Shown piece by piece: positions 38,902 to 40,240 of a DNA stretch of 47,425 bases. The stretch lies in IMG/VR virus record IMGVR_UViG_2778261162_000007. One strand, given 5' to 3'. The notes below the pieces were generated by a model. That model made no database searches. It saw nothing but the letters and a program-made list of their open reading frames with translations, and had not been told where the DNA came from. The stretch is from a virus (lineage: Duplodnaviria; Heunggongvirae; Uroviricota; Caudoviricetes). How positions within the stretch are numbered: the first letter of the stretch is position 1; each line of letters opens with the position of its first letter. The translations under genes and the position numbers were made by a program.

Positions 38902-39050
38902 ATCACAGTTTTATGATAAAACTTTTACCTTGGTTTGGAGTGCTGTAGAGAGATATTTTAGGGGGGCGAGTAATTTTCTAAGCTGGAGCATATTGACATA
39001 TATTATTTCGGATTTGCAAAATACATATTGTTACCATGGAGGAGACAAGC

Positions 39051-40211
39051 ATGGAAAATTTTGCAAATAAGTTAAAAATACACACAGAGCATGTTGCAAA
39101 AATGGGGGTGTTTTGTACAACTGAAGAAACGACAAAACAAGCACTCATTATGCCATTACTAGATATTCTTGGTTTTACTCCGTATGATCCAAGAAAAGTC
39201 AAAGCTGAGTATAGTGCTGACTTCCCCGGGGTTAAGGCTAATGAACGGGTTGATTACGCTTTATTTTGTCATGATGTTCCTGTGATGTTCATTGAGGCGA
39301 AATCGTTTTCAGAACAAATTGATAATCACTGCCCACAGCTATCAAGATATTTTAATTCAACACCGGAAGTTACTATATCAGCCATTACAAATGGTGTTGA
39401 ATGGCGTTTTTTTACGGATTTGAAACAAAAAAACATAATGGATTCAACGCCGTTTTTAAAAATAAGAATGGATTCTCTAACTCACTCCGATATTACACAA
39501 TTATTTCGTTTTCGTTATGATAAATTCAAACCAGAGGCTTTACGGACACTGGCTGAAGAAAGTGTTTATTTGAATTCATTTACTAAAACAATCAGTTCTA
39601 GTCTTCGTGAAGTTGATCTGGAGTTTGTTCGATATGTTGCTAGTCGTTCAAATATTGAGAGACAACTTAATCAGAGATTTCTTGAGTTCGTGACTCCATT
39701 AGTTAAACAGGCCGTTGAGCGCGCTGTTAGCGCAATGGTGGTTTCCGGGCTATCTACACAACCGGTAGAGCAAACTAAAGAAAATGATGCAACGGATACA
39801 CAAGTTAATAACGCCATTGTTGATGAAGAAAACCCCAACATAATAACCACAGCCAAAGAATTGGAGCTATTTGAAAGGGTAAAACAAATCATACAAACAG
39901 AAGATAATATAGAATATAAAGATACTGAGTCATATTTTGGTGTGCTATTGAATGGTAAAACTAATAGATGGCTGTTAAGATTTTATGATAAAAAATCTTC
40001 ATTTATAACTTTACCTATTTCGCTTAGTGAAGTTCAGTTGAATGAAATAAGACGAGCTCGACTTGATACGGATGGTAAAAGGATACATATAACTAATCCG
40101 GAAGATATACTTCGCATATCTGGTTTGATTCTGGATTCATACGAGTATGTTAAAAATGATGATAATTTCCGCCGAGGGTCCAGAGTGAGCAGTTTAGAAG
40201 AGGTTGAATAA
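39051..40211 (+). CDS. Stand-alone HsdR-N-like PD-(D/E)xK nuclease-fold protein (candidate defence/exclusion moron)
   Basis: GGAGGAG RBS; ERVDYALFCHDVPVMFIEAKS is a D...E-x-K motif in the context typical of type I restriction R-subunit N-terminal nuclease cores; visibly AT-rich; bracketed by two terminators within the baseplate gene cluster. Confidence 0.6.
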   Translation: MENFANKLKIHTEHVAKMGVFCTTEETTKQALIMPLLDILGFTPYDPRKVKAEYSADFPGVKANERVDYALFCHDVPVMFIEAKSFSEQIDNHCPQLSRYFNSTPEVTISAITNGVEWRFFTDLKQKNIMDSTPFLKIRMDSLTHSDITQLFRFRYDKFKPEALRTLAEESVYLNSFTKTISSSLREVDLEFVRYVASRSNIERQLNQRFLEFVTPLVKQAVERAVSAMVVSGLSTQPVEQTKENDATDTQVNNAIVDEENPNIITTAKELELFERVKQIIQTEDNIEYKDTESYFGVLLNGKTNRWLLRFYDKKSSFITLPISLSEVQLNEIRRARLDTDGKRIHITNPEDILRISGLILDSYEYVKNDDNFRRGSRVSSLEEVE

Positions 40212-40214
40212 GTA

Positions 40215-40240
40215 AAAAACCCGCGAAAGCGGGTTTTTTA
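40215..40240 (+). terminator. Intrinsic terminator immediately after the nuclease-like gene
   Basis: CCCGC-gaaa-GCGGG hairpin with a flanking A-run and TTTTTTT. Confidence 0.6.

Follow-up and report, generated by a model that had tools for sequence, protein, structure and literature searches.

The virus record IMGVR_UViG_2778261162_000007 (Caudoviricetes), a 47,425-nucleotide stretch of DNA referred to below as the window, holds a complete Rac-type prophage with intR/xisR, recET, racR, replication, lysis, terminase, head and tail genes, and tail fibres. Near-identical copies of this prophage adjoin ttcA in Escherichia coli EC11, A17 and other strains. Its baseplate module contains a single AT-rich nuclease gene, which an earlier note on this DNA, made from the sequence alone, had proposed to be a horizontally acquired moron and a candidate for phage defence. 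The gene and the cassette that carries it comprise the following elements.

38913..40243, no strand: variable cargo cassette (moron), 1331 bp, 35.8% guanine plus cytosine (GC), delimited by blastn breakpoints, GC content and a survey of the slot in relatives
38993..39022, plus strand: putative sigma-70 promoter-like site, TTGACA (38993-38998), 18 nt, CAAAAT; a match to 10 of 12 consensus positions
39038..39044, plus strand: ribosome-binding site GGAGGAG, 6 nt before the ATG, read off the sequence
39051..40211, plus strand: nuclease coding sequence, 386 amino acids (aa), phrog_4225, from the open reading frame (ORF) call, Pfam, PHROGs and the alignment of homologues
39051..39455, plus strand: PD-(D/E)xK nuclease domain, aa 1-135, from Pfam, conservation and the AlphaFold2 (AF2) model
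within the nuclease domain, plus strand: predicted catalytic residues E25/E26, D68 (39252-39254), E82-A-K84 (to 39302) and Q96xxxY100 (Q96-L-S-R-Y100, 39336-39350)
39468..39749, plus strand: helical middle region, aa 140-233, strongly conserved in the alignment, with AF2 helices at 145-152, 161-186, 190-199 and 208-232
39753..39836, plus strand: acidic disordered linker, aa 235-262, variable in length and sequence in the alignment; predicted local distance difference test score (pLDDT) below 50 at 235-252
39843..40175, plus strand: C-terminal alpha/beta domain, aa 265-375, with conserved T267, E270, D291, Y295 and R310 and a modelled fold like those of YdhG/DUF1801, YjbR/DUF419 and the MotA C-terminal domain
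40213..40240, plus strand: intrinsic terminator, an inverted repeat with a perfect 12-bp stem, GAAA loop and T-run; folding free energy (dG) -17.4 kcal/mol, z -5.2

The limits of the cassette are sharp. In blastn comparisons with E. coli STEC719, phage Rac-SA53 and E. coli RSHH22, homology stops at 38912 and restarts at 40244. The GC content of the cassette is 0.358, and that of the gene 0.356, against 0.473 in the 5-kb flanks, a deficit of 11 GC points for the cassette that agrees with the AT-richness noticed earlier relative to the surrounding structural genes. Related prophages fill the slot with different cargo, an AntA/AntB antirepressor on the opposite strand together with one or two hypothetical genes, spanning roughly 930, 1340 or 1847 bp. 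The Rac-SA53-like backbone is found in about 90 of 5426 complete E. coli genomes; the nuclease allele is present in 25, at 99% identity or higher, the remaining backbones sampled have Ant cargo in the slot, and no empty slot was seen among the 60 loci listed in the E. coli slot survey. Most phages with this backbone, Rac-SA53 itself included, are missing the nuclease gene. Since relatives swap Ant cargo for the nuclease, the slot is a cargo hotspot and the gene is not structural. A conserved role in the baseplate, considered as one possible outcome of comparison with related prophages, is ruled out because the gene is not kept across phages that have the baseplate module. The breakpoints at 38912/38913 and 40243/40244, the alternative cargo and the low GC content bear out the proposed horizontal acquisition: 38913..40243, nearly the same interval as the 38902-40240 of the earlier note, is a self-contained moron in the baseplate module, the prophage being of the E. 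coli Rac-SA53 type.

The gene downstream of the cassette encodes a Baseplate_J protein according to family searches. Upstream lies a 115-aa backbone gene (38554..38901), which had been taken for a gp25-like wedge gene. The baseplate J assignment holds and the gp25-like label does not: the sole match of the 115-aa gene is phrog_7986, a family of unknown function, and no Pfam family matched it. The alternation of Ant and nuclease marks the slot between these two genes as a cargo hotspot of Rac-type prophages.

Two further irregularities were observed around the cassette. An exact 12-nt direct repeat, GTTTTTTAATGG, occurs at 38859-38870, within the 3' end of the 115-aa gene, and at 40233-40244, where it spans the T-run of the terminator and the right cassette junction. 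About 0.07 matches of this length are expected by chance per 1.5 kb, and the repeat could be microhomology used in cargo exchange or a coincidence. A second small variable stretch, at about 38368..38539, lies just past a bidirectional terminator of the backbone and holds a 67-aa ORF with a TTG start (38354..38557). Homology to relatives breaks there at 38367 or 38442 and returns at 38540, and STEC719 has about 650 bp at this position against about 100 bp.

The ORF at 39051..40211 is a genuine gene of the proposed extent, and RefSeq places the start codon at the equivalent of 39051 in identical E. coli loci. This start is preferred over the in-frame ATG at 39036 because all homologues begin with MENF or MDNF, and the GGAGGAG described earlier as the gene's own ribosome-binding site is in place ahead of it. 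The encoded protein matches Pfam families HSDR_N (5e-14) and HSDR_N_2 (2e-9) at aa 25-128, through the motif ERVDYALF...MFIEAKS, and no Pfam domain was found outside that interval; PHROGs assigns the full length to phrog_4225, 'endonuclease' (4.5e-149). Across 83 aligned sequences, which are 25-87% identical to the query, E25, K29, D68, K84, Y100 and G115 are invariant, and E26, E82, Q96, T267, E270, D291, Y295 and R310 are conserved in at least 90% of sequences. The motif set of HsdR/RecB-type nucleases—helix glutamate, D, ExK and QxxxY—is therefore complete, and the D...E-x-K motif recognised at the outset is invariant or nearly so. Profile and structure comparisons agree on an HsdR-N-type domain with a restriction-endonuclease-like alpha/beta fold, closest to HsdR. 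Purifying selection on the gene is strong: non-synonymous divergence (dN) from the allele of an Stx2 prophage is 0.095 with synonymous divergence (dS) saturated, and dN/dS is 0.10 in comparison with Gilliamella, saturation making dS inestimable in four of the five allele pairs. By sequence and model the N-terminal domain is an HsdR-N/RecB-type PD-(D/E)xK nuclease, predicted to be active and to act on DNA.

The RefSeq name of the protein, 'type I restriction endonuclease', could be taken literally, in which case the gene would be the decayed remnant of a type I R subunit. In keeping with that name, an NCBIfam HsdR model of 1123 aa gives a weak match in its nuclease part, at 19 bits where the cut-off is 729. 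The protein cannot be classed as a type I R subunit, however: it has only the HSDR_N and HSDR_N_2 matches, with no SF2 (superfamily 2) helicase/translocase and no methylase-binding domain, and hsdM and hsdS are adjacent neither in the window nor in any inspected context, so that the name is a misnomer. Nor does it resemble a relic. It belongs to a large family of full-length proteins of 350-400 aa, with 293 clusters below 1e-30, and has conserved middle and C-terminal domains of its own under strong purifying selection. The conservation of the 386-aa architecture throughout the family refutes the idea of decay, to which we attach next to no credence. Homologous N-terminal nuclease domains are found in HsdR (EcoR124I HsdR and the Vibrio HsdR fragment 3h1t) and in the type IIG/IIL enzymes BpuSI and DrdV. 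These proteins have 800-1100 aa against 386; the SF2 translocase, methyltransferase, specificity domain and hsdM/hsdS partners are absent from the nuclease described here, and its helical region and C-terminal domain occur in none of them.

The remainder of the protein is also well defined. The AF2 model built on the 83-sequence alignment has a pLDDT of 91.6 and supersedes an earlier run on 35 sequences at 62-87% identity (pLDDT 65.8). The C-terminal ~200 aa, in which the earlier note recognised nothing, are resolved by the model into a helical region and an alpha/beta domain folded with high confidence. Searching the PDB with a sequence profile returned nothing relevant. The C-terminal domain was not found in other architectures, as a profile of this domain by itself retrieved just fragments and truncated gene calls of the same family (P0297, for example, begins at the equivalent of M130), and the only fusion among longer members is to a partial TerD, probably a gene-call artefact. 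Domain and fold searches detected no sensor domain in the protein (ATPase, TIR, cyclic-nucleotide binding and the like). The layout has a close parallel in type IV restriction enzymes (PvuRts1I/AbaSI, MspJI, Mrr), which likewise consist of one polypeptide, have no cognate methyltransferase and combine a PD-(D/E)xK nuclease with a linker and a separate putative DNA-recognition domain. We adopt this arrangement as a working model, in which the C-terminal domain probably selects the target. No sequence similarity to these enzymes was seen, and membership of the type IV class is not claimed because the protein has no recognised reader of modified bases.

The family is widespread, and the positions it occupies are informative. 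An exhaustive search of representative sequences yielded 3369 clusters at E < 1e-3, most members having 350-400 aa and matching nearly the whole query. Family members were confirmed in 184 places in a one-genome-per-species set of proteobacterial genomes, and they also occur in phages of Firmicutes, Bacteroidota, Actinobacteria and Fusobacteria. A species-level sample, collected with a close alignment and not a diverse one, contains 80 gamma- and betaproteobacterial loci at 52-71% identity, 77 of which have an intact gene by simple ORF calls. The GC content of the gene is below that of its flanks in 64 of the 77 species. In about a third of these loci the gene lies directly behind a repressor of the CI/RacR type: the same-strand upstream neighbour has HTH_3 in 24 of the 77 and Peptidase_S24 in 18, while Dit-like tail proteins, antiterminator Q and NinG are further upstream neighbours. 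In Citrobacter, Salmonella and Providencia 9-31 bp separate the repressor's stop codon from the start of the gene, the repressor having HTH_3 and in some cases Peptidase_S24 as well; both genes are on one strand, opposite a divergent cro/ydaT pair. Photorhabdus and E. coli are also among the hosts with this spacing behind a prophage repressor. A RacR-type repressor precedes the gene in E. coli PCN061 and in Klebsiella phage KpF5, and a helix-turn-helix (HTH) repressor precedes it in E. coli STEC384. Streptococcus pneumoniae phage IPP25 has the order repressor, hypothetical gene, family gene, integrase, and a Porphyromonas phage has a family gene beside hicAB. E. coli as a whole has the gene only rarely, in 33 of 5426 genomes and in three kinds of position. 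In an Stx2 prophage (E. coli JNEC-KY177, L003 8002-9159) the allele is antisense between Q and the block of methyltransferase, tRNA and stx2AB genes; it is 85% identical in amino acids and 78% in nucleotides, and shares with the window the coding sequence only and no flanks. No conserved partner gene was found across the contexts examined, nor any consistently linked methyltransferase, the phage methylases at some loci being non-adjacent and not conserved.

Interruptions of the gene were also seen. An allele of roughly 71% identity in E. coli NZ_OZ547461.1 (hit H80) is split by the insertion sequence IS1, and in PCN061 (L106 7126-7823) the 3' end of the gene directly adjoins an IS1. Such cases look like occasional gene inactivation.

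The distribution bears on whether the cassette might be selfish, that is, a free-standing homing endonuclease spreading by cutting alleles that do not have it. Free-standing homing endonuclease genes of T-even phages have a similar layout. An AT-rich cassette of one gene that brings its expression signals along, sits exactly between conserved structural genes and has copies of GTTTTTTAATGG close to both ends (38859 and 40233) would fit. A homing gene, however, stays at one target, and members of this family are spread over six or more unrelated sites, namely behind cI, behind RacR, near Q, behind a Dit tail gene, within a Gram-positive lysogeny module, and on chromosomes. Further, the alternative allele at the slot is other cargo and not an empty target site, the Stx2-phage allele has the coding sequence in common but not the flanks, and the left repeat copy is 42 bp into a backbone gene, away from the junction. 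Homing is thus very unlikely.

A promoter-like site, a ribosome-binding site and a terminator all belong to the cassette. The terminator at 40213..40240 begins 2 nt past the stop codon and ends 11 nt ahead of the baseplate J start codon; it was overlooked by the consensus scanner because its stem runs into the T-run. An upstream hairpin at 38309-38342 is also real and is bidirectional (dG -26.2, z -6.4). It lies about 570 bp ahead of the cassette boundary, with the 115-aa gene between, and is kept in relatives without the nuclease, which makes it a feature of the backbone. Of the two strong terminators that had been described as flanking the gene, both therefore exist, but the gene is not bracketed by them. 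The 149-nt 5' region folds no better than shuffled sequences (z +1.06), giving no indication of a structured leader. A perfect 11-nt inverted repeat, ATTTGCAAAAT / ATTTTGCAAAT, was noticed at 39012-39022 and 39058-39068, its arms separated by 35 nt. The left arm runs over the putative -10 hexamer, and the right arm corresponds to codons 3-6 of the nuclease gene; the repeat could be an operator-like element or a chance occurrence in AT-rich DNA.

In the window the gene has the same orientation as the late tail operon. As the terminator sits 11 nt before the start of baseplate J, late tail transcription must pass it, and antiterminated transcription of the lambdoid type would read through it. 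Such transcription would pass through the nuclease gene as well, and the enzyme might accordingly serve the phage's own cycle, by degrading the DNA of the host or of competing prophages after induction, by processing recombination or replication intermediates, or as an HsdR-N decoy against type I restriction. PD-(D/E)xK recombination nucleases are common in phages, and the other cargo of the slot, antirepressors, acts in induction. The commonest position in the family is nonetheless behind the repressor on the same strand, or in the lysogeny module, where genes are transcribed in lysogens and not in lytic growth, and the copy in the Stx2 prophage is antisense to the late transcript. The gene is dispensable, as most phages of the backbone are without it; a decoy would not require invariant catalytic residues; and chromosomal copies exist without any phage. 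We consider a function in the phage cycle improbable.

The placement of the family points instead to the lysogen. In lambda, rexAB sits directly behind cI, and genes in this position are transcribed with the repressor in lysogens. The position behind cI, the autonomous cassette and the antisense placement in the Stx2 phage suggest that the protein is made in the lysogen and not during lytic growth. For a partnerless DNA nuclease made constitutively in the lysogen, the simplest reading is an exclusion or defence enzyme. The gene would be transcribed alone while the tail operon is silent, and the enzyme would cut incoming foreign DNA, resulting in superinfection exclusion. As there is no methyltransferase, another route for sparing self DNA is needed: the C-terminal domain might read a base modification, a DNA end or a structure not found in host or prophage DNA, which would make the behaviour of the enzyme type IV-like. 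That the gene is expressed in the lysogen, that the protein cuts and that its substrate is DNA are inferred here, as are the function assigned to the C-terminal domain and a protective phenotype; the repeated lysogeny-linked placement supports an anti-phage role in lysogens. The presence of a BstA-like defence gene in another variable slot of the same prophage is a further point in its favour. The evidence tips modestly towards a defence role with a type IV-like mechanism, in which the C-terminal domain would sense some property of foreign DNA, and the repressor-adjacent, lysogeny-module and Q/stx2 contexts strengthen the standing of the gene as the candidate for defence or superinfection exclusion that it was first suggested to be.

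The same contexts are compatible with an abortive-infection effector, held inactive in the lysogen by the linker or the C-terminal domain and released by a phage cue to degrade host and phage DNA, with the death of the cell. A partnerless nuclease without a methyltransferase needs to avoid damaging its own host, which activation on infection would supply; a disordered acidic linker between two well-folded domains would suit autoinhibition; and the position behind cI is that of rexAB in lambda, a classic abortive-infection system. On the other side, the protein has no detectable sensor domain, and there is no conserved antitoxin-like or other partner gene. The present data cannot separate abortive infection from direct restriction, and we regard the former as unlikely, if less so than a function in the phage cycle.

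Several observations weigh against the defence role with a type IV-like mechanism. The modelled C-terminal fold, of the YdhG/YjbR/MotA C-terminal-domain type, differs from the folds by which modified bases are known to be read (SRA, PUA/EVE, winged helix). No function has been established for YdhG/DUF1801 and YjbR, the nearest matches, and among the fold matches the MotA C-terminal domain alone is a proven DNA binder, so that target recognition is a guess. Without a methyltransferase, the nuclease would also need some other way of avoiding self DNA. The TTGACA hexamer reported earlier at about 38993 is present and matches 10 of 12 positions together with CAAAAT, but the putative promoter is a consensus match only, with a weak -10; promoter-like sites in the region number 13 against 11.4 +/- 3.1 in shuffles and are not enriched. 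Chromosomal members exist away from phages: in Gilliamella, a bee-gut symbiont (L010-L013, 8001-9146), the gene has a fixed site flanked by pdxS/pdxT and a GFA-family gene, and no phage gene lies nearer than 8 kb, which means that the family is not restricted to prophages, and in Serratia a member adjoins an isochorismatase gene with no phage genes nearby. The nuclease matched none of the 5027 models of PADLOC-DB v2.0.0 at E <= 1, which include Shedu, Nhi, the PD-T4/T7/Lambda series and Abi families, a negative outcome for the PADLOC check that had been suggested, while the BstA-like gene of the window, serving as a positive control, scores 3e-21. No functional or experimental study of the family was found in the literature searched.

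Among known prophage exclusion and defence genes, lambda rexAB, P22 sieB and BstA lie beside the repressor, as do many members of this family. The proteins are unrelated, RexAB being a sensor with a membrane channel and BstA a KilA-N protein, and the nuclease gene of the window lies in the tail module and not beside racR. A DefenseFinder system named FS_HsdR_like is said to be a single-gene system encoded by phage-inducible chromosomal islands, reportedly described by Fillol-Salom et al. in Cell in 2022, and might be the same family as the nuclease. The likeness lies in the single gene, the mobile element and the 'HsdR-like' name, a label that RefSeq family names would also yield.

Published accounts offer some parallels. 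Nhi is presented, in PMC11232893, which cites Bari et al. 2022, as a stand-alone defence protein with an N-terminal HsdR-like nuclease and no methyltransferase; it has a DUF2075 SF1 (superfamily 1) helicase domain, whereas the 386-aa protein has no helicase. A 348-aa HsdR-N protein was found only in a phage-resistant strain of Campylobacter jejuni, its 'role unclear' (PMC8713573), and COG4748, to which the nuclease may or may not belong, was counted among the restriction endonucleases in Tn7 cargo (PMC8649781). The Gifsy defence gene GiPD474 (PMC12724215) was examined as a possible relative and rejected, as it encodes an unrelated ATPase.

What is real at this locus is a well-delimited moron with a stand-alone restriction-type nuclease and an uncharacterised putative recognition domain; as a defence gene it is a supported but unproven candidate. 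A bolder interpretation would see in the family an undescribed, widespread class of methyltransferase-free single-polypeptide restriction nucleases, which temperate phages of Gram-negative and Gram-positive bacteria alike would place behind their repressors as a general exclusion device, with the family-specific C-terminal 'double-wing-like' domain as a new sensor of foreign DNA that would detect a modified base, a DNA end or an intermediate of injection. This we put forward tentatively, thinking it more apt to fail than to hold. If the defence role is true, a large family now mislabelled 'type I restriction endonuclease' gains a function, and defence-finding tools gain a model they lack; the protein would be a compact nuclease of 386 aa, for whose target-recognition domain no counterpart has been characterised. 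If FS_HsdR_like proves to be the same family, the role is already established and not new. The link with repressors across unrelated phages amounts to a testable general rule, that genes directly behind cI are exclusion genes.

Other parts of the prophage also deserve mention. A KilA-N protein of 257 aa (12909..13682, minus strand) matches the PADLOC BstA model at 3.2e-21 and Pfam KilA-N at 4e-27. Its gene occupies a second variable slot between a DUF977 gene and hokD, on the opposite strand, next to an ORF at 12285..12788 (plus strand); strain EC11 has an ATP-dependent nuclease, a hypothetical gene and a Dcm-type methyltransferase there instead. Counting the nuclease slot, there are thus two or more cargo hotspots in the prophage, one with a known defence family. 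Finally, a 478-aa gene right after the large terminase (about 23560..25000 in the window, equivalent to L001 5265-6701) is named 'anti-CBASS protein Acb1 family protein' in RefSeq; a portal protein is expected at this place, so that the Acb1 name merits a check.

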